Source of the DNA: Protoeuglena noctilucae
Taxonomy: Eukaryota
DNA: 64,000 nt
NCBI GenBank assembly: GCA_958009085.1
Contig: OY253689.1
Span: 310,001-374,000, forward strand
Reading direction: 5' to 3'
The translations under genes were made by a program, and so were the position numbers. Within the stretch, counting starts at the first letter, position 1, and each line of letters starts with the position of its first letter. Positions 1-61,225 of the stretch are shown here, in pieces. The notes under the pieces were generated by a model. The model worked only from the letters and a program-made list of their open reading frames with translations. It had not been told where the DNA came from and ran no database searches.

Positions 1-3000
1 CGTGTCGGGCGCCAGCGCGCGCCGTTTCCGGCGCGCAAAGTCCCAGCCGCACCCTCCAGACGACGCACAATCTGCTTCTGCAGGTGTGGCTCGAGCACCA
101 TGTAGTTTCCAACGCGTTTCCCGCCCTCTGGGGCAGGCGCTGTGTTCAAACGCAGCTCGAGTCTCCCGGCCCCGGGCCTGTGAGACGATGGGATCCGACG
201 GCTCCCAGTGCAACATGCTTCTTTACGCGTCGCGTAGCGGGCGCCAACCCACCTCAGGGCGGCCGCGTCGCGCTGCTTGGGCAGGGTGCCCTTCTGGACG
301 CTCACGGAAGCCGTTCACGGCGTTCGCGAGGTATGTCGCCGCCCCCAAGCTACGGATTAGTTCCATTCTTTGCAAAATGCGCCATCCGCGAGGTCCCGGA
401 GCTGACGGTGCGCCACATCGCCGCGAGGGACGTTAGGCTCTGGACATCGGCCTGCCGGGGCCACGATGGCCGCTCTTGTCCCTCCAAATGAGTTTCAAAT
501 GCATTGTCCCGATGCTCTGCGCTGTAACCCTGCACAATCAGCCGCTATCTCGCAGCTGCTGGTTGGGCTGGCCTGGCTCGCAGCATACCCTGCTGATTGC
601 GGCCACGATGCGCTCAGGCCCCGCGCCACACCCGCCGGAGACGAGGTCTTATGTCCACTCAATGCTGTGTCGCCTGTCGTGTTAGAGCCTCAGGTGAGGG
701 CGCCTGTGTTGGCCTATGGCCGTGGCTGCAGTGGCGTTTTTGTGCCGTCGTGGCGCATGCTGTGTGTGCTCTGGTGGCACGCCATGGGCCTTGCGTCATG
801 GCCCACCGTCAGCCGGCCGGCTCAGGATCAGCCCAGCACTGTGCCGGTCGAGTGTCGGTCACGCGCTCTTGGCGCAGGACACCTGTCATGCTGTGAGCTC
901 CATTCTCAGAGACCGTCTCGTTGCTCGTTGCATCCAGGGCTGAGCAGAGGTGGCGGCACATGTGTAGCCGACCTGCTGTGTGCGGGCCTCAGAGACGGCG
1001 CTCCCCGCTGCTGTAAAGCGTGCGAGAGGTGAGTCTGGGGCCTGCAATTGGTCGCATAGGACGCCTTCGTCCCTCTTTCTACAGCGAATGTCGAGACCAG
1101 ACGCTGCCCTTTGCGCTTGACGTGTGGGGCACACCTGCTGTCATGCGCCTGTGCAGCTGCGCCATGGCAGGTGGCGGAAGGGAGACCCTGACATGTTGCT
1201 CGACGGCGCGCCCTTTGCTTCCCGGTACATGGATAGCGGCTGCCTTTCACATGCTCCTGGTCTTTTCACGAGGCAAGCGGCCGTGGTGGTGTGACCGCTC
1301 CTCGTGCTCGGTGCGTCTGCAGGCCGGCAGTTGCCGGAGGCCGAGCCTTGGCTGCGTGTCATCTCGGCTGTCTTCATTCCGCACCCTTCCACACCATGCT
1401 TACTCGGTGAGCGCGGCCCACGCGCCTGCGCTAGCGTATCGCTCACCTGCGCCATCGTATGCGACGTAAGGAGGCTGCCCCAGTGGTGTGTGGCAGCGGC
1501 CAAGCTGCGGCGGTTGGCAAGCGTGGTCCTCCGTGCTCTTTCAGAGTAGCTGCCTTCAGCACGCATCCATCTGTGCCTGGCCATGCCTTGCCATGCATTG
1601 TCGGAGGCTTGGGCACCTGACGCCACTGAGATGTACCGACAGACCCGCTGCCGGCATGGCCCTCAGCCAAGGTGCTCTACCTTGATGCCCGCAGAGCAAT
1701 GGGACAGGCGCGCGCTTGGTAGTGGCTGCGAGGTGAGCGGGGGTCATGAGCGGTGCGTCGGTGGTGTTGTAGCTGCAGGGGAGGGCGCTCGGTTTCCCGC
1801 CATCACTGCGCTGCTTTGCACGACACCTTGTGCCTCGCAGGAGTTAGGGCTGCGTGCTTGGTGCTGGCTGCAGTAGGTGTACGCGCGGCTGCTGCTGCTG
1901 CCTGACGTGTGCGAGGTGTGCTGATGGGTCGGCGTTTGTGGGCTGAGCTGGACTTGGTATGAGAGATGGGCTGGTGGGGATGTTGAGTGTGTTGTCGCCA
2001 GCAGGGCTACTGCACAGCACGTACAACGTCCCTACACAGTTTGATGCATGACCCCATGTCTTGCGCACAGCAACGGGGAGCCCAGGCTGTCAGCGGGTGG
2101 CGGACGTGCAGCAGAGTGATCCGAGCTTACGCGTGGGCGGTTGGAGGAGGGCTCCCCGCGAGGTGGAGGACTGAGCACGCGGGCGTCGGCGAAGAGGGCT
2201 TGGGAGGGGCGCGAGTCGGGTGCCGCAGGCAGCGTCCACGCCCCCTTCAAGGCGCGTCGCCGAGCGGAGGGTCGGGCACAGCACACGGCGCGCGCAGACC
2301 TGTATGCGCACGCGCGCAGCACATGCGCATCCTTTCCAGACGCCAAGCCCTCTGCGCCCTCGTCCCCCGCAGTCACATGTTTCGGCACCCGAGGCGGCGG
2401 GTCGTCGACGCAGGCCAGGCGATGCGCCCGTCAGGGCCGCTCGGTGAGGCATGTCCCTGTCCTGCCCGTGTCATCAGGCAAGCGCCGCCGGGCGCGCCCA
2501 TGCTGTTTCATCCTCCATTCAACACGTGAGCCATTCGAGGCGGGGCAGCCAGCCCGCGCCTGCCATTGCCATCGCTTGTGCTGCTGCTGCGGACTCGTGT
2601 AGCACCGAGCGAGCGAGCGCACCTCAGAGGTTTCATTAGAGCATTTCACTGGCCGCAGCAGGCGCTGCAGCCGCTAGCGTGCACCCGGACCCCGCTTGCT
2701 TTGCCCACGCGAGCCAGTTCTAACCCCGGTCGCGTACCGAAATCATTGAAGAACGTACCCACAGCGTACCCGTGACCCGCACCCAAAGCGCTCCGGCAGC
2801 GTTCCAGCAGCGTACCTGCGTTGTTCTGATCAGCGCGTACCTGCGTTGTTCCGATCGTGTTCCCCTGGAGTTCCCCCGTGTTGTTCCGCCTGCGTAGCAG
2901 ACCACGGCACCGCCGGCGTTCCGCCGGCGTTCCGCCGGCGTTCCCTTCTCAAGGGGAAAAAAACGTGTACCGCGCGGTACACGGTGAATCTCCCACCAGT

Positions 3001-4090
3001 GAGGGCACGTCGTGGGCTGCTAGTATTAGCCCTGGAAAGGTGGCGGACGCTGCCGGGGGCGAGATGTGACCGCATGGTTGCGATATATGAATGACGCCGT
3101 GGGATTAGAGTGTCCCTGTCGACTCTGGCGCATTGTGCTCCCGTCTGACACGGCGTTCGGGTCCATGAAGCCGTCTTCGGCGCCGCTGCTTGCGAAGAGT
3201 CGAGTGCGATCGTCAGAAGCAGCGCATCTCTTGTCGAGCGTGCGCTCGGTACGCTTGAATCCGACCCAGAGGACCCAAGCGCTTACGGGCTTGACGAGGC
3301 GAGGAGTCAGAGCGGCGAGCTATAGATCACATCATAACAGAGGTTGCTGTGTGTTCATCCGCCCGCTGCGATGTGCGGAGGCTACGCGCACGCCGGGCCT
3401 TCGTTGACTGTCGCCCACCGGCTGAGCATCTGTCGAGCGGACATTTTCTGCCCTGCTTTGGGCATATGCCACTGTCTTCGCTCGCACTTACACGCGCGGG
3501 GTGTCCGCGGGCGCCGGGAGATCCAGACGCGGGCCTAACCTTGTCGCGCTTGCTCGGGGCCCGCTGCGCCTGGTCGCGGGCCCCGACCTGCTATCGAGCA
3601 TGCTTTCGAGGGCATTTCTGAGACGAATCTCAGTTGGCAGGGCCTTTGGCGCCCGGTACCCTTTCCCGGCGCCGTCTTGGCGCTCAGCATGCCGAGGCCC
3701 GCCGTGCGCGCAGCCGGGACTTGCAGGCATCCAGGGCCTTCCGAGGCGGTCGCAGCAGAGCTAAATCCACTGCACGAGTCTGCACGATGGGAGGCAGGGC
3801 CAGCAAGCGGTCGCGGAGGTAACTTGAGCGCAACTAGGCATGTATGTCGATGCTTGCTGGCAGCTCGCAAACTCGCCGCGAAGTCGGCGCGTCTTGTTCT
3901 CGCAGCCGGCGACAGCGCTCCACTCCTGCGACCCCCGCACATGCCGCCCCCGCTGCGGCGAGCCGTGGGACCGAGAAGCCACTCGGAGGTGCGAAAGCAT
4001 GCATGGCTCCCTAATGGCTCTGCCAAATCGCAGCCGCCATGCCTCTGGTCTACCAGAGAGCCTCTCTCGCCCGCAGGGACTGCTGCGTCT

Positions 4091-6709
4091 ATGCCGCCAA
4101 CGGCCAGCGTCGTCGAGACCAAGGCGATGGTGGAGGTGGGCCCGGCAGCTGAGAGCGAGGCATCCTCGGAGTTCCTGGCGTCGGTCTCGGCCATGCAGAC
4201 GCTGGTGGGGAGCGGCGGGGCGCTGGACGGCGTCGTGGACAAGGGCGGGGTTGGGACGGAGGACGCGGCGCGGGCGCAGAGGGCCATCGAGCGCGTGCAG
4301 CGCGCCCTGCAGGGTGTGCCGGTGCTCAGCATGCTGGGGCCCGTGTGGGAGGTGGCGGGCGTGGTGTTCGGGATGTGCGCCCAGGCGATAGCAAACCGCC
4401 AGAACTGCTACCGCCTGGCCCGGTGCGTGCTGGTGTTGGCGACGCGTCTGTCGGCCATGGACCGCCACGTGCTGGCAGGGAGCAAGGTGGCGGTGGAGGA
4501 CCTTGTAAAGAGCCTGGAGAGCGCGAAGGAGACGGTGCAGGTGTGGGCGCACGGGCAATGGTTGGCAAGCACAGCATGTAGCCCCAGGCTTGCAGCTGCC
4601 TGTCAGGCGGTGCAACATGCAATCCCTGCTCTCGCGTCCGCAGCGGTACTGCGACCGCGGCAAGCTGGCCAAGCTTGTGTTCAGCACGGCGCACGCCGAG
4701 AGGTTCGTGGTCCTGCACCGCGACCTGGAGGCCAAATTCCACGTGCTGGCCAGCGACGTGGTGCTGATGGGCGGCAGCGACTACGCGGAGGACGAGAGGC
4801 TGCGAGAGGCGCTGCGCCGCGTGGCGGGCACGGACGACCCCAAGGCGCTCGCGGCGCTCGCGGCGCTGGCGCAGGACGAGGCCAAGGTGGAGGCGGTGCT
4901 GGCGGCGCTGTCGGTGTCGGACCAGGCGGTGGTGGCGGTGGTGAATGCGCACGCGGACCGGCAGTTCCAGCAGCAGGGGTCGCTGATCCGGCGCATGTTC
5001 GAGCAGCAGCGCGATGCGTTCGAGGACATCGCGAGGCAGCTGGCGGAGCACCGGCAAGCGGGCACGCAGGGACCTGTGGACTTCGACGGCGAGAGGGCGG
5101 CGACGGGTTGCGCGGAGTGGTCGCGGGAAGTGGTGGAGGCGGCGACGGGGGACTTCGAGTCTTCGCGGGTAGTGGGAAAGGGCGGGTTTGCGGAGGTATT
5201 TGCTGGGGAGGTGCATGGGGGGTCCAAGGGCGCCGCTCTGGCGGTGGCGGTGAAGCGGTTTATGGCAAAGGCAGACGCGGAGGACGTGGCGCGGCAGATG
5301 GCGACGGAGGCGGAGCTGCTGTCGGCGCTGCGGCACCGGCACGTGGTGCGGCTGCTGGTCACGTGTGCGGAGCCGCCCTGCTTAGTCTACGAGCTGTGCC
5401 GGGGGGGGACGCTGGAGGAGCGGCTGGAGGGTAGGCACGGGGGCTTATCTGCTGCCTCGCGGCTGCGGGTGCTGGCGGAGGTGGCGGAGGCGGCGGCGTT
5501 CCTGCACTCGGCGACGGGGCGCGCGGGGGGCGCCAAGCTGCAGGGGGTGGTGCACCGGGACATCAAGCCGGACAACATCCTGCTGACGGCGGACGGGGAC
5601 GAGGCGGAGGCGCGGCTGGGGGACTTCGGGACGGCGCGGGAGGAGAGCGAGCAGGCGCGCGCGACGCGGGTGGTGGGGACGTACTTGTACCTGTGCCCGG
5701 TGTACATGCGGACGGGGCTGGTTGGGCCGCAGACGGACGTGTACGCGATGGGGGTGACGGTGGCGCAGGTGGCGGCGGGGTGCCGCGTGGCCGACGTGCT
5801 TGGGGCACTGGCGCCGGGGGGGAAGCGGGAGCTGGCGGCGGACGCGGGGGCGGGGGAGTGGGTGGCGGGGGTGTTTGAGGAGTGCGTGGAGCTGGCGCGG
5901 TGGTGCACGATGCAGCAGGAGGACGGCGCGGCGCGGCCGGACATGCGGGCGGTGGCGGCGTACCTGCGGGCGCTGCACTACGTGGCGACGACGGGGCAGG
6001 CGGAGCTGCTGGACGCGATGCTGGGGGAGCTGAGGAAGCGGCGCGAGGAGGTGAGGGGAGGGGGTGACATTGGGTGCGCATGGTGAGAACGTCCGGGCAG
6101 GCGGGAGCTCGGATGTGCTCTGGGTGCAAACGGGTTAACGGGGCTGGCGCTGGCGAGCCGGGACTGGGAGTGCAGGGATGCCCTGTGCCCCGGGCGCGCC
6201 CGCAGGCGTTGGGGGGAGGGAAGAGTGCGGCGGCTGCGGGGCGGGAGGCGTGCGAGTGCAGCGTGTGTGGGGAGAAGAGGAGCGTGCGCGAGGTGGTGGC
6301 GTGCTCGAAGAGGCAGCACCGCGTGTGCGGGGCGTGCCTGGGGCCGCGGGCGCTGGTGCTGGCGGCGCGGAAGGCGGCCTTCACGGAGGCGGGCCACCTG
6401 CGATGCCGGGAGTGCACGGGGCGCGCGTGCGAGGGGGTGCTGGCGTACGTGGAGGTGGCGGCGAGGCTGGTGGAGGACGGGAGGAGCGCGGAGGCGGACC
6501 GGTTCATAAATGCTGCAGAGGAGAGGCTTGCTGCGGAGGAGAAACGTGCTGCGGAGGAGTGGCGTGCAGCGGAGGAGAGGCGTGCTGCGGAGGAGAAACG
6601 TGCTGCGGAGGAGTGGCGTGCAGCGGAGGAGAGGAATGCAGCGTTTTTGAAGCGTAAAAATGAGGAGTTGGAGTCGCTCATCCATAGCCATTTTTTCCCT
6701 GGCAACTAG
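4091..6709 (+). CDS. MLKL-N-terminal-like four-helix bundle + IRAK/Pelle-type Ser/Thr kinase + RING-HC finger + short coiled-coil repeat; 3 exons (4091-4540, 4644-6050, 6206-6709)
   Basis: Two GT-AG introns join the ORFs in phase 0. Kinase motifs: GKGGFAEV, VAVKR, HRDIKPDNILL, DFG, GTYLYLCPVY, DVYAMGV. The N-terminal helical segment (VAGVVFGMCAQAIANRQNCYRLARCV...LVKSLESAKETVQRY...LAKLVF...RFVVLHRDL) resembles the MLKL_NTD pattern. CSVC..C..H..CGAC..CREC fits a RING-HC finger. The kinase call is firm; the 4HB and RING calls are pattern-based. Confidence 0.85.
6512..6643 (+). repeat. Coding 18-bp tandem repeat (AAEE[K/W/R]R, about 7 units) with a 54-bp higher-order duplication
   Basis: gctgcggaggagaaacgt / gctgcggaggagtggcgt / gcagcggaggagagg.. 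occurs twice in the last exon of the kinase gene. Confidence 0.9.
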
Positions 6710-6752
6710 CTTGGCCTTGAAGTCTCCACTAGCAAACCCCTAGACTACAACA

Positions 6753-7081
6753 CGCACGCTGTCCGGGCACGTTTGGGGGGTGACCTCGGTGGCGTTCTCG
6801 GCGGACGGCGAGCTGGTGGCGAGCGGGTCGGAGGACAAGACGGTCAAGCTGTGGGACGCGGCGACGGGGGCGGAGGTGCGCACGCTGTCCGGGCACTCTA
6901 AGGTGGTGCACTCGGTGGCGTTCTCGGCGGACGGCGAGCTGGTGGCGAGCGGGTCGGCGGACAAGACGGTCAAGCTGTGGGACGCGGCGACGGGGGCGGA
7001 GGTGCGCACGCTGTCCGGGCACTCTAAGGTGGTGCACTCGGTGGCGTTCTCGGCGGACGGCGAGCTGGTGGCGAGCGGGTC
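6753..7081 (+). repeat. About 2.6 near-identical 126-bp WD40 repeats (HET-E-like high internal conservation); orphan fragment or possible terminal exon of the kinase gene
   Basis: Units 6753-6878, 6879-7004 and 7005-7081 encode RTLSGHxxxVxSVAFSADGELVASGSxDKTVKLWDAATGAEV. There is no ATG of its own, an in-frame TAG lies at 6741-6743 (also a possible acceptor AG), and homology ends abruptly mid-repeat. Confidence 0.9.
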
Positions 7082-7124
7082 CATGCCTTCTATTCCATGC
7101 ATGAGCCACGCTTCATCGTGCCAA

Positions 7125-9088
7125 TCATTCAATAACGACGTCGTCCAGACAGAAGCTGACCGAGTCTCCAGGTGTCTCAGACAGAAACTGGAACGTGATC
7201 TTGTTGGGGATGACGGTGGCATTGCACCGGAAGGACGACATTGGCAGCGCGTACCTGCAGCAAGTGAGCAACTGGTGGCTGTGTCTGTATTCCCACCAGC
7301 TCCACACTCGCGTCGCCCACTCCTCTCACACACTAGCCCCACGCTCGCCTGGTCCAGTCCCCGGATGTCGCGTTTGCCGGCACACCGCTCAGCACCGGAG
7401 CCTCGTCGCAGCCGCGGTCGGCCACGTGCGCCCCCAGCGTCGCACTTACCGAGTCGTAGTCAGACTGACTCAGGAACACTTTGAGGTCAGGGACCCTAAC
7501 AGTGTCCGGGGGACTGGAGGCAAGCGCACCAGCTGTCAATGTGACCTGTCCAGGCACCCCAGGCGCAGGGGTGGAGCCAGGCGCGATCTCAACCAGCCCC
7601 AAAGCAGCGGGCCGAAGGACTGGGACGGCGCCGATGGCGGTTGCGTTGGCAGAGGCCACCGGGGGGGCGTATGTCGGGCCACCCCCCGCCAGCCGCACCC
7701 AGAAGCTGAGGTTCTTCGCCCCACTGAACGGTCGCAGTCGATCATGGCACCCGCGGCAGTAGAAGGCCATGCCGCCCCCTGGGCCAACCGTCAAGCACAC
7801 GGCACTGCAGCGGTCGGGAAGGGAGGCGAGGCGTCGTGCATGCTTGCTGCACATGCACTCGCCGGACGTTAAGACATCAAATCCACGCTGTGCACCAGTC
7901 CCTCCTCACTTGGACCCATCCAGGCCAGCTCCCTTGACCATCAAGTCCTTCTCGGAATCTTCCCACGTATACCACGCCCACCCGTTGGGCTGATCAGTGT
8001 ACACATCGCGCACGGGCCACGCCTTGGACCCCTGGCGCAGGTCCAAGGGCTGGCGAGTGGCGCAGTCGACGGGGCGCCACTCAATGCCGATGATGCCATG
8101 CGCGGGGTGGGCGAGCTTCTGCAAACCAGGGGCGCCACTGGAAGAGACTCTCCATCAGCACGATCGGCTGCGTTCACAGCACGCCTGCCATCCTTCTGCC
8201 CCACACTCACATCAAATGCCCAGTAGCTGAGGTCCATCGTCGGGGTGTCAGCGCAGCAGTTCTGCTGGAGGCGGCACGTCGACGGGCAGTAGAGACATGG
8301 GCAAGTGTCGATTATGTGGATGAGAACAGGGTCCTTGTTCCAGCAAGTCGTGTACATGACACCGGTACCCTCCATCACCTCCACCGACTCCCTGCGAGGG
8401 CGAGGATGCAGTGCTCGCCAAAGTTATGCCAGCCTCCTCTCGCCTGCGTGTCGGGAGCACCCAAGCATGTCGTCGGCAGAGTAGGCAGCGCCCCGCCCAT
8501 CGCACTCACGCAGGCATCTTCCTCCCGATAGAGTCCTTCAGGCCTGGCACTGCCTCCCACATGGTCTGGTTGGAGCTGAGGCGCTGCATGGCCGTGGGCT
8601 CGTAGCGCTGCCCGGCGACGAGGTTGCGAGGCACGAACCCGTCCCGGCACCGCACCTCGTAGCACTGCCCGCACGAGCCCGCAGCGGTGGGGAAGGAGAA
8701 GTCAGAGAGAGCACCCACCGCGTCGTGGGGGAAGGGCAGGTCATCGTTACTCTGGGGCTGCCCAAGCCTGCGGCCCGCAAACCCGCACGCGGCGCCGAAC
8801 AAGTCGCCCCAGGCTCCCGCGCCGCCTTGACGGTAGGGCGCGTATGCGCTTTTTAGGGACGCTGGGCCGTCAAAGAACGTCGCTCGCCCCACCTGCCACT
8901 CGCCCGGCCTGTAGTCCGCGGGGAGCTGCGGATGCCTCAAGGCGAGCATCGCTTCGAAATGAGGCATATGATTTCGTCGCAAAGCACACGACATCCCGCG
9001 CATCGGTGCCGCTCACGTGCGCAGCCAGTGCCGACAGGGCGGGGGCGGCCACTGCCCATAGCGTGGCGATGGCGAGGCCAGCCAGCAT
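7125..9088 (-). CDS. Secreted expansin-like (DPBB) protein with a C-terminal beta-sandwich/CBM-like domain, paralog 1 (multi-exon)
   Basis: Signal peptide MLAGLAIATLWAVAAPALSA; motifs GRATFFDG, GAACG, GSCGQCYEVRC, IIDTCPC, MDLSYWAF-KLAHP, WRPVDC; ends FCLDDVVIE*. Colinear with paralog 2. Confidence 0.8.
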
Positions 9089-9365
9089 CCTGCGCACGCG
9101 CTGCAAATTTGTGACTGCAATGCAAGACCGTCAGGCAGCTGAGAAATGCTGAAAGCGCCTGCGAGACCGCGCCGGGGACGAGGCAGCCTCAGTGCAGGTC
9201 CTCCCGACCCCGCAGATACGTCAGCGATTGACGATGGCGCGTGGCTCCAGCTAAAAACTGAGCGTTCAACGATAGCAACTAACGCCATCTTCGCCCAAAT
9301 GCGGCGGCCTCGTGACAGGGCCATGGCCTTCTCTGGCACTCGCTGCAAGAACTCCTCACACTCGC

Positions 9366-11299
9366 TCAGCTGGCCGCGCTCGAGATCTGGATGTTGTCGA
9401 CGCAGAAGCTGGTGCTCTTGCTGGTGCTTGGGATGGCCTGGATGGTAATCTTGTTGAGCTGGTCTGCGATGTCGCCGCACTGGAAGTCGGAAAGCGGCAG
9501 CGTGAACTTGCTCCACGCGCCCTGCTGCTGAGCCGGGGTGTAGGACCGGAGAGTCGGGGACTGCCGGCATCCCGTGTCGCCCGACGACCCCGTGCTGCCG
9601 CTGTCCTCCGACTTTGACAAATAGACCTTGACGTCCGGCACCGCAGCTCCCTGCACGGGCATGTAGTTGGGCCCGCCCCCCGCCATGCGCACCCACAGGC
9701 TGAGCGCAGTCGCGCCCTTGAATGGGTCCACGGTCCCCACGCATTCCAGGCACTCGAACGCCATGCCACCATCGTCCGACACCGTCATGCACGCCGCCGG
9801 GCTGCGAGAAGCAGCATAAAACGATTCAGTCACATGCAGTGTGCTCCTGCACGCATACTGTATGTGCATGCAGTCAGCAGCACCCATCGCCACTTCCCAG
9901 CCGGCCTCGCCTGAGGTTGACGCCGGCCATCTTCACAATGAGGCTCTTCTCGGAGTCCAGAAACGTGTACCACGCCCACCCGTTCGACTGGTCAGTGTAC
10001 ACGTCGCGGATCGGCCACGCCTTGGACCCCTGGCGCAGGTCCAAGGGCTTGCGAGTGGCGCAGTCCACGGGGCGCCACTCAATGCCAATGATGCCATGCG
10101 CGGGGTGGGCGAGCTTCTGCAGACGAGGGCGTTGATAAAATGAGCAGGGGCGTCCAACAACTAGCCTCCTGACCGCAAGCAGCGCCGCTTCCGCACAGCA
10201 CGTTGGCCACTTTGGCACAGCACATTTGCCGTCACTCCTCGCCAACCAGGCACTCACGTCAAATGCCCAGAAGCTGAGGTCCATCGTCGGGGTCGGCGCA
10301 CAGCAGTTCCCCTGCTGGTGGCAGATGTGGCCCTTGGGGCAGTACTCGCACGGGCAGGCATCGACGATGTGGATGAACACCGTCGGGGCGTTGTCCCAGC
10401 ACACGGTGTACATGATCCCGGTCTTGTCCATTTCGGCGATGGCCTGCCTACGAGGGGTCTCTCGCAAGGAAGGCGTGGGGCAGGGGCTTGCTTGGCGTGG
10501 GGCTTGTGCGGCATGTGACTTGTGGGGCATAAGGCTTTCTCACGCGGCAGTTGACGCTGCGCGAGCCACTCACTGCGGCATGACCCTGCCCTGCTCGTCA
10601 TGGTAGTTCACGGCCGGCGCGATCTTGAACAGCGGCTGTCCTGACGTCAGGTTCTGCAGCCCCACTGGCTCATACGGGGTCTGCCCGCCTCTCAGCACGA
10701 ACCCGTCCCGGCACCGCACCTCGTAGCACTGGCCGCAGTACGCCTGCGGGGGTAGCCCAAGCGACGCTTGTTGAAAAGGTAGGTCGCTACCGGCTTAGTG
10801 CGCCGTGCAGAGCGCGATTGGTTACCGCGCTGGTGGGGAAAGACGTCGTGCTGATGGCCCCCGCTTGATCGATGGGAAACGGCAGGTCCGCATCCGTCTG
10901 CTGCACGCCTTTGCGTCGGTCGACAAAGCCGCAGCTGTTGCCGTACAGCACGCCCCAACTTGCTACACCGCCCCGCCTGTAAGGGGCTGTCAGCTCCTTC
11001 CACTCTGTCGTCCCATCCAGAAAGGTCGCCTGGCCAATGATCCAGTCGCCCGTGTTGTACCCGGAGCCGACGCTCTCGTTTGGACCCAACTGCAAGGGCG
11101 CCTCGGGCGTGGCATGCCCACTCCCAAGGGCCCACGCTCGCGGCTTTGGAACTGGTTTGCGCGGCTTCGTGGCCCGCGCTGCTCTTCACTATCGATCGGG
11201 ACATCCACTTACCATGTCAACCTTCTGCGCGAGGCCCGGCCCGGCCACAGCCAGGACGGCCGCGGCAGCGGCGACCAGCACTCGGGCAAGGCGCTGCAT
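9366..11299 (-). CDS. Secreted expansin-like (DPBB) protein with a C-terminal CBM-like domain, paralog 2 (multi-exon)
   Basis: Signal peptide MQRLARVLVAAAAAVLAVAGPGLA; motifs GQATFLDG, GNSCG, YCGQCYEVRC, IVDACPC, MDLSFWAF, WRPVDC; ends SFCVDNIQISSAAS*. Confidence 0.8.
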
Positions 11300-28147: not shown

Positions 28148-31100
28148 TCACTTGACCTCGACGGCCGTCTCCCCCGCTCCCCTCACAAAGTCCTTCACCA
28201 GCGCCACCAGCTTTGCCACCTGCCCCGGCTCATCGCTCTCGGCATTCAACACCAAGATGGGGTCATGGAGCGACTGCCTGCGACACAAACGGGGAGGCAG
28301 GGGGTGGGGGTGAGGATCTTCAACTTTGACAAGGATCATAGTACACTACATAGCACGTTGTCTCTGCCCCACCCACAGCACCTCAGCATTACCCACCCAC
28401 TCTCCCCCTCTCTCCAGTGTCTCACCTCAGCAGCACCGACCCACTCACCCCCACTCTCCACCGCCACCCCTCACCCCTCACCTCAGCAGCACCCACCCAC
28501 TCTCCACTCCCACCCCTCACCCCTCACCTCAGCAGCACCCACCCACTCTCCCCCACGTTGTACCTCCACCCCTCAAAATTCTCCGCCTCCAGCTCCCACC
28601 CCTCCTGCTGCGACGCCCACTGTTTGAAACGGTCCAGCACTCGCGCCCCAATCTCCTTGTATCGATCCAGATCGCTGCGAGAGAGGGAAGGTGGTTAGAG
28701 ATATGGTTGGCAATAGAACCATGTTTAAATGGTGATGAACCGTAGCCGCGTCATGCGTTGTTGCGGCAATCGGTAGCGAAGCCCATACATGCGCACGGTT
28801 ACTATGCAGTTACTGTACAGGTACTACCACACCATCCATGGCAGTTTGACAAACTGCCCTCACTTGATTTTGAATCGCACTTCCTGGCCTTCCAAAGGGT
28901 CCTGGAATCCCTTGAGGAGCTCTGCAAGCAGACGGCACAGAGAACGTGCTGTTGAATGGGCAGCTTCACTTACAGTATTGCACCACTTCATAGACAGCAC
29001 TGCACCCCACCACTGACACTGTCCCGCACCCCGCTCAGCCCACCATCCACCCCCTCACCACCACCACCTTGCCACCCACCCCTCACCACCTCCTCGTCAC
29101 CCACCCCCACCCACACCCTCTCACCCCCCACTACTCGCCTGGCAGCCCCGAGCCGGGCTTCTCCAGCCGCATGCGCACGAGCTTGATGAGGATCTTGACA
29201 GCCAGGTACGCCCCATCATCCAGGAAATAATTCTCCTTCATCGCCCCGTGACCGGACGTCTCGATCATCAGCTGGCAGTCCACGCCCTCTGCGTTAATCT
29301 CCATGCCTTTGGAAATGACGTTCTTGTAGCCCCGGCGGTAGCGGAGGTGGCGGCCGCCACGGTCCCTGGGGGGGGAAGGGAGGGTTAGGGTGTGGAGCGT
29401 GAGAGTTGCGGTGGGCGAGGGGGGGTGTGAGAAGCAGGGTGGGGAAATGAGGCGATGGGGCGCGGGGGTTGCGATGGGGGATGGTTGGTGAGAAGCAGGG
29501 TGGGTAAATGAGGTTGCGAGAGGTGCAAGGAAGGAAGTGGGATGGTGAGCGCGACGTCACCCCACTTACTGTAACGCTGAGTTAGTCTCCATTATCCTCC
29601 ACCATCACTCACTGTATGAACTGTGCCAGTCCCTTGGACGTCACCGAGTCCGTGACCACCGTCGACCCTGGGTGGTCCTCCAGCACAATCGCCGACAGCA
29701 CCGCGATCAGCCTGTTGCGGTTGATCTCCCTGCCATCGGGAGCCACCACAGCGCTGCGGTCCACGTCGGTGTCAAACACGATGCCCAGGTCGGCCTTAGC
29801 ACGAGCCACGGCCCCCGCTGCGCTCTGCATGGCTGTGGGGTCTTCGGGATTGGGCACATGGTTGGGGAAGGTGCCGTTGGGTTCGAGGAATTGGGAGCCA
29901 GTTGTGTCTGCGCCCAGGTCGGCCAGCATCGAGGCGAAGAAGCCGCCGGAGCCGTTGCCCGCGTCCACGACGACCTTCATGCCGCTGCGGGTGGGGGTGG
30001 GAGGGGTTGAAGGGGTGGGGATGAGGTGGAGAGTGGGGTAGGGGTGGAGAGGGTGGACAGGGTGGAGTGAGTAAGTGAGGGTGGAGTCAATGGTGTGTGG
30101 AGTGAGGTAGGGGTGGAAAGGGTGGAGTGAGTGAGTGTGAGTAGAGTCAACGGTAAGGTGTGGGAGTGAGGAGGCGACACCAAGGGATGGATGGTGCAGG
30201 TAGCGATCGACGGGCAGGGACAGTCACAGCACACGTAGCCTATCCTAACCCTGTGCATCACACGCACCCCATACCACTCAGCTGACCTGAGGGGCTTGGT
30301 GGGGTTGGTGGGGTGCTTGACCCCGTCCTGGATGAGCCTCTGCAGATGCCTCGCGTACGCCTCAAGCACGACTCCCTCTTGCTTGGACACCAGGGCACTC
30401 GACGTCTGCATGGCGCCCGTCAGCATGGCCGTCTGCAGGTCCAGGTCCTCGCTCAGGCCGTGCGGCTGCAGCGACGCGGCGGCGTCGCGGGCGGCGCCGT
30501 CCAGGATCGCCTGCGAGAGACGGGAGGTTGGGGGCTATGGTGAAGGTGGAGGGAAGAGCAATTGTGGAAGGATGAGCTGTGCCTGCAACCACATAAACAA
30601 ACGGCGACCCACTGGGACCTGCATCGTGCATTCCACCGTGTCTGTCGCTCGCCTTGATGTCGCCCTTGTCGAGCCCCCCCTCAGCGACGAAGAACTTGAG
30701 CCCGTTGCGGTTGTAGGGGAGGTGGGACGCGGTGGCCATCACGGCACCGTCGAACTTGAGGTCGGGCAGGATGGTGGACATGAACATCGCGGGGGTGGTG
30801 GACAGCCCCGCGTCGACGACCGACGCGCCGCGGGACGCGGCGCCGGCGGCAAAGGCGGCAACGATCGCCCCACCGGACACGCGAGGGTCGCTGCCCACGG
30901 CCACGCGGAGGCCCTCGGCGGGGAGCGCCAGGCGGCGGGAGAGCCAGTCCGCAAAGGAACGGCCGATGAAGTAGACCATCGTCGATGTCAGGGACACGGG
31001 CTCGCCCTGGATCCCTTCCACGGCCACGCCGCGGATGTCCGACCCGTTCTGCACCTTCGCGAAGCGCCTGGCCAGGTGCTCCGGCACCGGACTGCGGGGA

Positions 31101-33945: not shown

Positions 33946-36900
33946 ATGGAGGAGGAGGTTAACAGGGTGAGGCTGCCGGTGCGCTGGGAAGGCACCTGCT
34001 CGGTTTCCCGCCCAGCGCGCAACGGACCAGGGCGGGACGGCGATGCGGGACCCGTCCGGCCGCACCGGCGGGGCCTAGATGTAGATGTCACTGAGTCGTT
34101 TGCATAGCGCTCCCCAACCTTGACCCACGACCGCAGCTCGTCCCCCTAAGCTCGCTCCCTTGTGCCCCTCCTTTGCAGGATCATCCCTGCAATCCAATCC
34201 CGGAGGAGATCGTCCGACAGGGCTTCTGTCGTCCGAAACCAGCCGACCAGGTCCAAAGGCGACTCGATGTGCCCCGGGAGGAGCGTCAGCGGAGGTTGCT
34301 CGAGAAGGTGAGCAGGGCATCGTCTCTTGGCGCGATGGACAGGCCTAGAGCGGCGCTTGGTTGAGACAGGCCCACAAAGCATCGAGATGCCGCGCTCGCA
34401 GTCGGAGGAGCATGAAAGGGAGGAGGGCAAGCTCTTGATCGGCATCAAGGTGACGCTTTGCAATGCTTTGACGAGACAGCAGGGTGCAGGCAGATGTGGG
34501 AATGGCGCATGTTGGCGATCTTTTCAGCACTGGGCGCTGGCTGCCATGGGGATGTCATGCGTCATCACCCCGCAACACTGAGCGCCCGCCACAGCACCGC
34601 ACCGATGCAACACATGACGCCCCGCAGCAGCACCGCACTGTTGCAACACCGAGCGCCGCCCCTCAACAGCACCCCACCATTGCCCCCCCCCCCCCCCCCC
34701 CCCCCCCCGCAGCACTGGACTGTGCTGAAGGACGAGGAGCTCCCCGCGGGCCCCATGGACTGCGACCCCAACGTCCGATACCGCATCGTGCCTGTGGACA
34801 ACTACCCGGGGAGGCAGAAGGAGTTCCAGGTGAGTGGGGGTGGGAGTGGGAATGACGTTAGTGAAAGGCGACGAGAGGAGTTGGAGGTGAGTGGGAGAGA
34901 GAGGGGTGACGATGACTGTGTCTGTGAACGACTACCCGGGGCGGCAGAAGGAGTTCGAGGTGAGTGGGGGTGGGGATGATGACGGTGACTGTGCAATGCG
35001 ACGGGAGGAGGTGAGTGAGAGGGGGGATGACGACTGTACGATGCGACAGGCGAGCTCACTGTCACCCTCTCTGGCGCTCTCCACGCTCTCCCCTCACCCC
35101 TCACCCCTACACACTCCCATCACCCCCTCACCCCATCACCCTCCAAACCCCTCACCCCTCACTGCTCACCCCCCTCACTCCCCATTACCTCAGTACCTGA
35201 AAAAGCTAAAAGTCGACGTGTCCAAATACAAGGACTCTGAGGAGTGTGACGGAGAGGACGAGGGAGGTGTGGAGAACGAGGGTGATATGGAGAATGGGAA
35301 CGATATGGAGAATGGGAGAGATACGGAGAAAGGGGGGGATTACGAGGACGAGAGAGACGAGGAGAACGGCGTTGGCGAGGGGGTTGAGGTAGCTGTCACC
35401 AAGTCCAGCAAGACGCCCGAGGCGAAGGCGGCGCGGAAGAGGACGGCGGCCAAGGCCACGGCTGAGCCTGCGGGGGTGGGGAGGGCGGGATTGCCGCGGG
35501 AGGACGAGGGGAGGGGCAAAGGCAAGGGAAAGAGGAAGGGGGTACATGGAGATGATGGGCCTAGCAAGAAGAGGGGCAGCAGGGCGGGCGGTGGGAAGGG
35601 AGAGGAGAAGCAAAGCAAGAAGAGGGGCGGTGGGGAGGGTGGGAAGGAGGGAGAGGGATCGGGGAAGAAGCGGCGGGGCGGGGAGGGGGGCAAGGGGCGG
35701 AAGAGCGGGGGTGGTGTTGGGGCTGGGGGCGATGGGGAGGATGAGGAGGTGAGGGGGGGTGGGGTGGTGATAGGGGTTGGGGTGGGGAGGGGTGGGGAGG
35801 GGACGGGAAGGGGTAGTGAGTGGGAGTGAAGGGAGCAACAGGAGGAGTAGGTTAGCCCGCATGTATGCATGTGTGTCGCTGCGCAGTTACACACCTACAC
35901 CCACACCCACCCTCACCCCCACCTCATCTCATCTCACCCCCAGAACATCGACATCGAGAACGCCCCCGCCCCCCTGCTGTTCCCCAAGCCCGGGGAGGAG
36001 AAGCGGTTCGCTCGACTGAAGAACGACCCCTCTCGCCTGGCGCAGTGCCAGGAGTTCCGCAGGAAGTTCCTCGAGAAGTACCCAGAAGACTGGGTGTACT
36101 CGGAGGTGAGAAGGGAGACTGGTTACCTACAGAAAGTTAGTACTCAGAGCTGACCGTTTCTCTTCTAAACTTGTAACCACTACCCCTGCCCCTCCCCCTA
36201 GGGCGACCACTATTACTCAATAGTTTTTAATAGTTGGTAACTATAAAGTATCAACTACTGCCCCTGCCCCTCCCCCCAGGGCGACCACCGTTTGGAGGAC
36301 TTCTGGGAGCTGCCCTTCACGACTAATGACGACAACGGCGACTCGTTTCTGGCGGAGCGCATTGTGGACGAGGACACGAGGGAGGGGGGCGTCGAGGTTC
36401 CGGGTCAAGTTCTGGAAGTGGGAGGTGAGACGATGAGATTGTGACATGAGGCATCTGGTCAAGTTCTGGAAGGGGGAGGTGAGGGATGGGTGGTGCTGAG
36501 TGATGTTGGGTGATGGGGTGTCTGTGAATGGAAGTGGGAGGTGAGGCGTGGTGATGGGATGGATGGGGTGTATGTGACGAAGGCATGAGGAGTNNNNNNN
36601 NNNNNNNNNNNNNNNNNNNNNNNNNNNNNNNNNNNNNNNNNNNNNNNNNNNNNNNNNNNNNNNNNNNNNNNNNNNNNNNNNNNNNNNNNNNNNNNNNNNN
36701 NNNNNNNNNNNNNNNNNNNNNNNNNNNNNNNNNNNNNNNNNNNNNNNNNNNNNNNNNNNNNNNNNNNNNNNNNNNNNNNNNNNNNNNNNNNNNACACAAC
36801 CACCACCACCCCCTTTCCCAGCTCGAGCCCTCGTGGCTGCCCAACCCACCCCTCACCCCTTACACCCCACCCACCCCCCCCCCAACCCACCCCTCACACC

Positions 36901-37079
36901 TTACACCCCCCCCACCCCCCCCCCCCCACCCATCCCTCACCCCCCCTTCCCAGCTCGAGCCCTTGTGGCTCCCCGAGGAGACTTTGACTGAAGATCAGTT
37001 GCGGAATTGGTACGACGAGGACAAGGAGGAGCTGAAGAGGTGGAGGAGGGAGAAGAGGAAGGCGGAGAGGAAGCAGTGA
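33946..37079 (+). CDS. Uncharacterised multi-exon protein with acidic and Lys/Gly-rich regions and a C-terminal chromodomain-like segment (apparent 1-nt frameshift near 36384-36389)
   Basis: Ordered GT-AG exons; FLAERIVDED..FRVKFWKWE|LEPLWLPEETL resembles the chromodomain pattern. The gene spans the assembly gap. Confidence 0.55.
36594..36793. other. Assembly gap (200 N), within an intron
   Basis: Run of N between G-rich and C-rich intronic sequence. Confidence 1.
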
Positions 37080-58324: not shown

Positions 58325-61225
58325 ATGGGTGAAGGTTTATCGGACGTGCTCGGCCTGGCCAGGCCGCACGGCGCTGGGATGATGCAGCAGGTCTCGGCAG
58401 GCCTGCACGGCGTGCAGGACGGGGTCCAGAAGTTTTTCAGGCGAGTGACACTTGAGTCATCCATCGATGCGCTCTGCCGAGGGTCTCTGCGTCGCGATCG
58501 AGGGAGGCGGACGGGGCCGAGGGTGCGACTGGGGTACGGGGCCCCCGCGCCTCGCGCCGGTCGCGCCCTCGCCCGAGCGCAGGTCGTGCATGTAGTATGC
58601 ACGGTACCTAATCAATGCGATGCGCCCGGGCGGCATCCGCGTTGCGGCGAGCCCCCTGCCCCGCCCTTGTTGCGCGCAGGCGGTTGAGCACGCGCCTGCG
58701 CGCCACGGTGGGCGGAGGCGCGGCCCGCGGGGGAGCGAAGAAGGGCGGCAAGGAGTTCCGCGAGGATGCGGGCATGTCGGAGCTGCATTTCGGCGGCACG
58801 CTGCTCTTCGGCGTCCTCGTCTGGCTCGTGTCGGGTGAGGCGCAGCTCGGGCGCCCCTTTCTCGCCGAATCTCCTTTTGATTCGCCCGCGATGCACGCGC
58901 AACCTCGCCCTCTCTTCTCCGACGCGACTTTCATGCCAAACCAACGACCCCGCGTCCCTCCACTGCCGCTCCGCATCACACATGCCCCGCCAACCTCCCC
59001 GTAAAAAACGAGTTCGCATTTCCCGCGTCGCCTTGACAACCCTTATACTCCGCACCTCGTCGCTGTCCTCGCAGCCCTCCCCGGCGCGCTGCCCCTCTTC
59101 TACCTGGTCTACTGCGCGGTGGCCTTGCCGATGCGCGCCGTCAAGTACGTCCGCATTAAGTGGGGTTTCTTCCTCTTCGACTTCTGCTACCTCGTCAACG
59201 CCGTCTGCATCGTCCACCTCGCGTTCTTCCCCCGGGAGCCCAGGCTGGCTGCCTTCGCCCACATGCTCGCCGATGGTCCCGTGGCAGGGGCCATCATCGT
59301 GTGGAGGACCTCGTGGGTCTTCTCGTCGCCAGAGCACGTCATCTCCGGTGAGCGTGGGATGGAAAGGGGTGGTGTGGGCTGCGGCTGTCTGCTTGGCTCG
59401 GCTTGTAATGATTCACTTGGCTCACCATACCCGTCTCACCCACTCTCAACCCCACTGCCACCCACTCACCCAACTCTCTCTCACCCCGCTCTCACCCCCC
59501 AGTCATGATCCACATGCTCCCCCCCCTCTCACCCACTCACTGTCACCCACCCACCCCTCCTCACCCCTCCCCAGTCATGATCCACATGCTTCCCGGCCTC
59601 GCCCTGATGGCCAACCGCATGGCCGGCGGCCCCAAGGGACTCTGGGAGGCCACCGTGTCCCTCCGGCAGCTCGCGGGTTCAATCCTCGCCGGCGCCCCTT
59701 TGGCGGGCCTCAAGGATTTCCTCTCCCAGTTCTCCTCCCCGCCTCCCCCCGAGACCTGGCACCTGACAGCGACGGACGCGTTTCTGTGGAAGGCAGCTGC
59801 TCCCATTGCCTTTTATGTGGCGTGGCAGGTCGCGTATTGGTTCGTGGTGCAAGTGGCCCTCATCGACCTCTTCCGCAAGAACAAGGCGTACCAGGTGATT
59901 GGTAGATGGAGATGGGTGACCAACTGGGGAGATGCGATGGCGTGATGGGGGGGAGGGGGGCAAGGCCTACCAGGTGACGGGTAGATGGAAATGTGATTCA
60001 TGAATAGTTACATGGATAGATGCATGGATAGATGCATGGAAGATACGACGTGGAGATAGATGGATACATGGAGATCGAGATGTATGGATACGTCGGTTGC
60101 TAGAAGGCAGGGAATGCTGCTAGAGCAAGCGAGGCGTGAGACAGGTGAGATGCATGGAAAGATGGGGGTGGTGGGGTGAGGGAGTTGCGATGGTGTTGAT
60201 GGGGCAAGCGTGCCTGGTCAGCATGTGGGGTGGGGCGAGGGAGGTGGGGCGCATCGTGACGCACTAAAAAGGAGTGTCCCATGAAAGGGTCCTTTCAACG
60301 GACACTTCTTTTCAGTGACGTGCGATGTACCCCACTCACCAACCCCCCCCACACTCCACTCAACCCCTCAGACCCCTCTCCCCCCACTCACCTCCCCCCA
60401 CTCACCCCCTCACTCACCCCACTCACCCCTCACCCCCCTCTCACCCCCCTCACCCCCCCACTCACCCCCAGACTTCCTTCAAGTGGCTGACGGCCCGCAA
60501 GAACTCCTGGGTGATCCGTCAAGTGAACCGCGGCAAGCCCCGAAGGCGCATCGTCATGTTCGGTCTGGTTCAGTTCACCTACACCCTCTTCGCCTATGCG
60601 CTCGTCTATCCCTTGTATCCGTCGTTCTATCGACTCGCGGGGTGGCAGGCAATCAAGGCCGGGTTTGCGCTGTGGTACGGGGCGCAGTACCAATGCGAGG
60701 CGATACCCAAGGTGATGAGGGGAATGTGATGTGCTGTGATGCAGTGACAGCGAGAGAAACGTGCTGTGGCGCACTGCAGTGCGCTTTTCTCAACCCCTTA
60801 CCGCACCCCCCATTCCCAGAAGATCCACCGCCGTGCCTTGGCTGGCTACGACCGTGTCATGGCAGACATCGGCACGCAGGAGCTCAACAGCATGGCCACG
60901 TCCGTCAGCCCCGTGGTGGAGGCGGCGGTGCTGGACGCGGCGTTCGTGCACCCGGGGGAGACGGACGGGTGGTTCGATGCGGATGAGGTGGTGGGGGGGG
61001 AGGTGAGGGGTGGGGGTGTTGTGATGAGTGGGGTGGGGTGTGATGGGTGGGGTGGTGGTGGTTGTGAGGGGTGGTTCGACGCCGAAGAGGTGGGGGGGGT
61101 GGAGGTGAGGGTGGGGAGGAGTAGAGATGAGGTGTTTGATGTGAGTGGACATGTGATTGGATGCCGATGAGGTGGCTGCCGACTGCCTACCATTGCCCTG
61201 TTCCCAGGACGTGAAGACGGAGTGA
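58325..61225 (+). CDS. GPC1: Glycerophosphocholine acyltransferase (Gpc1/DUF2838 family)
   Basis: WGFFLFDFCYLVN, GPVAGAIIVWRTSWVFSS..ISVMIHMLP, YQTSFKWL; several transmembrane segments. Confidence 0.85.

Follow-up and report, generated by a model that had tools for sequence, protein, structure and literature searches.

A short WD40 array of the HIC type between two convergent genes of Protoeuglena noctilucae, probably the relic of a multi-copy repeat family

Near-identical WD40 arrays serve as variable sensors in immune-type receptors of fungi and bacteria. Intact genes of the HIC (high internal conservation) type encode many near-identical WD40 blades that together form a propeller, and closure of a β-propeller usually takes 6–8 blades. 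In such genes the residues of the top-face loops, those after the GH and after the GS motifs, are kept diverse by selection, and the rest of the unit is homogenised by unequal crossing-over and gene conversion. Dyrka et al. are said to have described HIC repeat sensors of NLRs across life in 2014. The NWDp1-3 loci of Podospora anserina (HET-D/HET-E/HET-R, HNWD) are reported to consist of near-identical units of 126 bp (42 amino acids) that vary at the codon pairs flanking a conserved Val and a conserved Asp, to form a multi-locus family, and to include arrays that stay open and intact at loci without a working protein (Paoletti et al. 2007, PMC1805685). According to the same report, codons 7, 9, 25 and 27 of the HET-E-type repeats, which flank the conserved codons 8 and 26, are under strong positive selection (PMC1805685), and HET-type function is reported elsewhere to need at least 10 units (PMC2873952). 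The HIC sensors of NLRs described by Ament-Velasquez et al. (2026, PMC13449251) combine the same high internal conservation with hypervariable surface positions, and HIC repeats outside fungi have already been published there. Finally, bacterial kinase-WD40 and caspase-WD40 proteins of the HIC type (P0008 and P0003) share the unit layout of the fragment described here and are up to 76% identical to it; in P0008 the kinase is encoded in the same gene as the WD40 array.

We analysed a stretch of 64,000 nucleotides of the P. noctilucae genome (contig OY253689.1, positions 310,001 to 374,000; hereafter the window), which has a GC content of about 65%, contains spliceosomal introns and has no Rfam match. 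In this window a WD40 array lies between two convergent genes. The array shares with NWDp1-3 the length and near-identity of its units, the placing of their variation, the membership of a multi-locus family and an open, intact state at a locus without a working protein. It differs from NWDp1-3 in having 2.6 units, as against at least five reported there (PMC1805685), in the absence of an adjoining NACHT relic and of RIP, and in its host, a marine and non-fungal-looking eukaryote with a GC3 near 0.9–1.0. The bacterial proteins of the P0008/P0003 type have at least 10 blades, with kinase and array in one reading frame, whereas here a stop codon and a spacer separate the kinase from the array. 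Many C-rich low-complexity tandem repeats of the CCCCTCAC and CACCC type were also noted in the window (28379-28575, 35086-35178, 36840-36946 and 60329-60469). The features of the array, in window coordinates, are the following.

6753..7081, plus strand: WD40 array of 2.6 units of 126 bp, defined by Tandem Repeats Finder, base comparison and Pfam
6753-6878, 6879-7004 and 7005-7081, plus strand: unit 1, unit 2 and partial unit 3
6771..6785, plus strand: hypervariable patch of unit 1, x-x-x-V-x after GH, holding 7 of the 8 base differences
6897-6911 and 7023-7037, plus strand: counterparts of this patch in unit 2 and unit 3
6831..6833, plus strand: codon that varies between GS and D; unit 1 has GAG (Glu) and unit 2 has GCG (Ala; 6957-6959)

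Tandem Repeats Finder described the array with a period of 126, 2.6 copies, 96% matches and a score of 602. Its 329 bases lie in an open frame that begins at 6744; this frame stays open for 246 codons with neither a stop nor a frameshift, and the array holds no in-frame ATG. The translation matches the WD40 profile (PF00400) in three stretches with an E value of 7.9e-35 and 118.3 bits, well above the Pfam cut-off of 27. An AlphaFold2 model of the 112 array residues, built on an alignment of 7 sequences, consists of regular four-strand blades and has a mean pLDDT of 96. With 2.6 units, modelled as approximately 2.5 blades, and no further WD40 in the 64-kb window (tblastn), the array is too short to close a propeller, as a preliminary description made from the sequence had said. 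The GC3 of the array is 0.97 compared to 0.88 for the kinase gene upstream.

The units differ in a few codons only. Unit 3 equals unit 2 at all 77 of its bases (100%), 6833-6955 recurs exactly as 6959-7081, and units 1 and 2 are equal at 118 of 126 bases (93.7%). Both values lie within the 80–100% unit identity expected of HIC repeats. The eight bases that differ (6771, 6772, 6774, 6775, 6778, 6783, 6784 and 6832) change five codons, V>S, W>K, G>V, T>H and E>A. By the Nei-Gojobori method there are thus no synonymous differences over 33.8 sites and eight non-synonymous differences over 92.2 sites. All five changed codons occupy x positions of GH-x-x-x-V-x and GS-x-D, and for five changed codons among 42 the probability of landing exclusively in the six x positions of GH-x-x-x-V-x and GS-x-D-x equals 7e-6. 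In the AlphaFold2 model the loop preceding strand A contains the first three residues of the patch after GH, and the fourth opens the strand; the variable codon of GS-x-D corresponds to a loop between strands; other genomic copies have Gly or Val at the codon after GS. In the numbering of Paoletti et al. the changed codons are 5, 6, 7, 9 and 25, in agreement with a concentration of HIC variation at codons 7, 9, 25 and 27. As all changes fall at known hypervariable codons, the pattern is real and non-random. The earlier claims that the 126-bp units differ only after GH and GS, by non-synonymous changes throughout, and that they show high internal conservation of the HET-E type are therefore both borne out.

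At 90% likeness, the window was compared over 3000-10500 with contigs of four runs: X1 from an isolate, X5 from a marine metagenome, and X9 and X10, both of them metatranscriptomes. Depths are those of contigs, not of raw reads, and parts without cover prove nothing. The neighbouring features are as follows.

3844..6709, plus strand: kinase gene, with proposed CDS 3844-3988, 4077-4540, 4644-6050 and 6176-6709 (849 codons plus TAG)
6511..6634, plus strand: 18/54-bp coding tandem repeat at the end of the kinase gene, encoding an Ala/Glu/Arg/Lys/Trp-rich coiled coil (Tandem Repeats Finder)
6710..6752, no strand: left spacer of 43 nt, GC 0.49, from the kinase stop to the first unit-matching base
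7080..7431, no strand: 352-bp segment present twice in the genome as judged by depth, its left edge being the array end
7082..7124, no strand: right spacer of 43 nt, GC 0.51, from the array end to the stop of the convergent gene
7125..7325, minus strand: final coding part of the convergent gene, whose stop occupies 7125-7127

The array occupies 329 of the 415 bases between the stop codons of the two convergent genes (the kinase TAG is located at 6707-6709) and is a sharply bounded island of coding composition in UTR-like DNA. A gap of 44 nt had been given for either side; the short gaps are there on both sides, each with a length of 43 nt. At both ends the array is cut in the middle of a unit. 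On the left, unit homology breaks abruptly at 6752/6753, a junction known from this assembly alone. On the right, a contig covering 7080-7431 begins at 7080 in both DNA runs and has a depth of 130 compared to approximately 63–70 for single-copy contigs in X1, and of 30 compared to approximately 13–19 in X5. The contig that follows, 7402-8044, is single-copy and overlaps the first by 30 bases. In a 31-mer graph a two-fold contig with a 30-base overlap means that the second copy, which is not found within the window, shares exactly 7080-7431 and diverges at 7079. The segment spans the 3' end of the convergent gene. Repeat unit and flank share the bases TC at 7080/7081, and array and flank are joined in the same way in P0243, which comes from an independent ENA contig. 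The right end of the array at 7080/7081 thus marks a rearrangement breakpoint. A transposon was considered and dropped, as neither target-site duplications nor terminal inverted repeats were found around the array, and the flanks fit a breakpoint made by end-joining or recombination.

The kinase gene encodes, in order, a helical N-terminal region, a protein kinase domain (Pkinase, E = 3.9e-33 in Pfam), a Cys-rich module and a coiled coil. For its intron 3989-4076 (GT..AG) an RNA contig contains the joint; its other introns are predicted from the frames and their GT..AG ends, the joined frames having no internal stop. One RNA contig from X9 (5843-6217) runs unspliced over the predicted intron 6051-6175, so that either this intron is retained or the gene model is wrong there. 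The kinase is approximately 30–38% identical to bacterial kinases. It had been described as MLKL-like: the kinase domain stands, and the MLKL label draws on a sub-threshold match upstream to MLKL_N (PF22215; E = 0.0041, 17.1 bits against a cut-off of 27) and on one language-model lead, an Atlas neighbour cluster in which 10% of the members have MLKL_N. The Cys-rich module (6176-6500) corresponds to no Pfam family; two of its homologues, P0368 and P0369, have a second Cys/His-rich module, and the two together may form a RING- or IBR-like zinc-binding pair. A homologue that is 80% identical (P0366) ends before the coiled-coil region 6511-6634. A short upstream open frame (3787-3819), with Met-Gly-Gly as its first residues, is located in the 5' region of the gene, in a stretch common to the compact paralogue described below.

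At present the array stands outside the reading frame of the kinase: the kinase gene ends in a TAG, the array has no ATG, the candidate acceptor before it is weak, no splice joint into it is among those listed and the close kinase homologues have no WD40. In particular, the candidate acceptor, the AG at 6742-6743, is itself the end of an in-frame TAG and reads TAG|A, whereas all three acceptors of the kinase gene read GCAG|. No joint into 6744 was present among those listed for two RNA and two DNA runs, and the check for splicing from the kinase gene into this AG that had been proposed thus found no such joint in the two RNA runs. WD40 was found in none of the three close kinase homologues (the window's own protein at 100%, P0122 at 88% and P0123 at 61%) from a search with 228 significant matches among 8000 candidates scored, in which the fourth-best match was 32% identical. 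It was likewise absent from all eight homologues of the last exon found in a full-library search (E <= 0.001), of which three cover the Cys-rich module (P0366 at 80%, P0368 and P0369). These homologues are single open frames called on eukaryotic DNA, so a WD40 exon further downstream in a relative would go unseen. A search of metagenome contigs for the locus with the kinase returned only unrelated kinases, with a best identity of 37% (600 pattern matches, 503 confirmed, 80 kept). The suggestion that the array is a truncated sensor domain of the kinase gene is accordingly not supported as far as the present gene is concerned.

On the other side, the convergent gene had been called an expansin. 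This name could not be reproduced, as the match to DPBB_1 has an E value of only 0.22 (12 bits against a cut-off of 28.8) and no PDB sequence matches at E <= 1. The gene is one of two tandem paralogues on the minus strand (7125-9012 and 9366-10539) with Cys-rich, DPBB-like and C-terminal binding-module-like stretches; neither has a significant Pfam or PDB sequence match.

We consider it probable that the array is an untranslated relic of a HIC-type WD40 array, belonging to a multi-copy family in a marine, intron-bearing eukaryote. It has the features of a gene fragment: both ends are truncated, a start codon is lacking, it lies outside the supported frames, and its parent family is found elsewhere. 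We infer both the absence of translation and the mode of origin. The surface-only variation would have been acquired in a working array and then inherited by the fragment. Room for the 3' untranslated regions of both convergent genes must be found within the same 415-bp gap. In our judgment the odds are about even between the vestige of an array formerly located behind the coiled-coil region of the gene at this locus and an ectopic piece captured during break repair. Counting against a relic, the open frame of 246 codons and the identity of units 2 and 3 indicate that the fragment either arose recently or is preserved through exchange with other loci. Neither NACHT nor NB-ARC was found by Pfam at the locus, where the only matches upstream are Pkinase and the weak MLKL_N, nor in P0326, a related WD40 frame described below; the locus is for this reason not assigned to the NLR/STAND proteins, and differs from the HIC sensors of NLRs in that no NTPase domain was found here or in the N-terminus of P0326.

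Other copies of the repeat, which the preliminary description had supposed, are present in the same organism. The summed depth over the array bin 6765-7015 is 442 in X1 and 160 in X5. Contigs of X1 that read T at the synonymous site corresponding to 6890/7016 have a summed depth of 459, or approximately seven single-copy equivalents, and thus about seven more unit-equivalents at 90% likeness or above exist elsewhere in the organism. The letters in which these copies depart from the window cluster at 6956-6959, 6900-6904 and 7027-7030, the latter two being the patch after GH. Four contigs in X1, six in X5 and three in X10 match rightwards of 6815 and have an SPDGRW-type strand to the left, the strand that identifies the P0326 cluster. 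This cluster comprises five members from ENA assemblies, outside the window (P0326 and P0361-P0364), and P0326 is 75% identical to the fragment. Its members have an identical N-terminus of 68 residues, followed by one, two or three full WD units, and their frame closes with a partial unit; within P0326 Pfam finds only WD40, and no family in the 68-residue N-terminus. All forms break off within a unit, directly behind DG, and this points to a premature stop or an intron. The three forms of 208 residues have seven variable columns, all seven in the WD units and none in the N-terminus, at positions 3, 21, 22, 23, 34, 35 and 37 counted from the residue after GH. The HET-E-like pattern thus appears to hold between samples as well, as far as short-read assemblies can be trusted. 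The cluster also resembles the HIC sensors of NLRs in its apparent differences of unit number between assemblies, a picture that short-read collapse would equally give, here as in P0243 (PMC12222747).

An exact 36-base unit pattern returned no stretches in metagenome contigs and a 30-base unit pattern none in genome contigs. Among the protein matches listed, the longer relatives of the fragment are only many-blade bacterial and fungal proteins of at most 76% identity, from a search that ranks by summed score, so that a close parent cannot reach the top. A compact paralogous locus was seen in a single contig (539 bases in X10) that joins, in the same order as in the window and without the kinase body, pieces like 3205-3274, 3712-3832 (the kinase 5' region), 6571-6619 (the coiled coil) and 6786-6933 (WD). 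The WD piece has 13 other letters and two gaps, and in X1 the last piece maps at 6912. Its depth is 33.8 in X10, 41.5 in X1 and 20.2 in X5; the value in X10 compares with approximately 3–7 for the kinase exons, and in X1 two variants of the paralogue, with depths of 41.5 and 23.6, sum to single-copy depth. WD repeats thus appear to lie downstream of the same 5' region at this locus too, which would make them a long-standing part of the locus type and speaks against a random insertion; this is a lead, and it includes a coiled-coil piece of 49 low-complexity bases.

Several other explanations of the array were weighed. The first is that the fragment is retained as a donor cassette, exchanging units or patches with expressed genes of the family by gene conversion and so serving as a reservoir of specificities. 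The open and undecayed frame, its GC3 of 0.97 and the identity of units 2 and 3 would agree with this, as would the mosaic likeness to other copies, which is near-identity to the right of 6815 and several synonymous and non-synonymous changes in the strand to the left. Intact WD repeats are also reported from otherwise ruined NWD pseudogenes of Podospora, for which a reservoir has been proposed (Paoletti et al. 2007, PMC1805685). However, the SADGEL-type strand of the fragment is seen only here and in P0243, and two distinct variable patches would make a very small reservoir. We regard a donor role as unlikely, and somewhat more so the wider proposition that silent WD40 cassettes near cell-death-type genes, here the helical-bundle kinase, trade blades with expressed sensors. 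If it were true, cassette shuffling would give phytoplankton-like cells a recognition repertoire that can be diversified, comparable to that of the fungal HNWD genes.

A second possibility, to which we assign little weight, is a living coding exon, by which alternative splicing or read-through would add the array to the kinase or to another product, the short WD tail pairing with partial propellers. The AG at 6742-6743 directly precedes the open frame, the last kinase exon offers in-frame GT sites (among them 6293 and 6455), and in bacterial relatives of the repeat a fusion of kinase and WD40 is frequent. Nevertheless, besides the lack of a joint among those listed in two RNA runs and the weakness of the acceptor, the in-frame GT donors, found only inside the Cys-rich module, would remove that module if used. 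Nor does the right end of the array offer a convincing donor, so the frame would run into the antisense of the neighbour's last exon, and 2.6 blades cannot close a propeller.

An assembly artefact, in which the fragment was misplaced or shortened by misassembly of a repetitive family, is very improbable. Short-read assemblies of HIC WD40 arrays are reported to be unreliable and to omit or create repeats (Ament-Velasquez et al. 2025, PMC12222747), and P0243 has 1.6 units instead of 2.6. P0243, encoded on an ENA contig of 1067 bases, is 98% identical to the window over 189 residues, with three mismatches (one at the start residue, one at the E/A codon and a Glu>Gly change) and an identical tail of 134 residues, and represents either an allele with one unit deleted or a short-read collapse. 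Against an artefact, X1 and X5, which stem from different studies, contain 95% and 91% of the sampled words of 3500-9500, and the array-to-flank junction recurs in the independent ENA contig. Furthermore, the X1 contig over the variable patch of units 2 and 3 (6890-6902, with no other letters) has a depth of 135 compared to approximately 63–70 for single-copy contigs. This corresponds to two copies of the patch, as assembled, and argues against a longer array in the X1 isolate, contrary to the earlier idea that the array had collapsed.

The least probable explanation, that convergent transcription makes the locus a source of double-stranded RNA and thereby of small RNAs acting on expressed family members, would suit the geometry (329 of 415 bases between convergent stops) and the depth of 33.8 of a related WD locus in an RNA run, but neither RNA run has any depth over 7267-8521, which belongs to the neighbour gene, and no overlapping transcription was seen. 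Over the array bins the two RNA runs have depths of 3.75 and 44.1. As the contigs concerned carry other letters and loose ends, we attribute this depth to paralogues; transcription of the copy in the window is likely, as part of a 3' UTR. DNA contamination of the RNA contigs is unlikely, a weak argument drawn from the zero depth over 7267-8521 in both RNA runs.

Taken alone, a stranded fragment of 2.6 units is ordinary genome debris, which illustrates how such arrays break and scatter. Its use is as a marker for a family of near-identical WD40 repeats in a marine eukaryote that vary only at residues of the predicted binding face and whose unit numbers differ between environmental assemblies. 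Diversifying recognition repeats are well studied in fungi and bacteria and, to our knowledge, have hardly been tested in marine protists, in which arms races between viruses and their hosts are ecologically important. The pattern of this family is the signature of rapidly diversifying recognition proteins.
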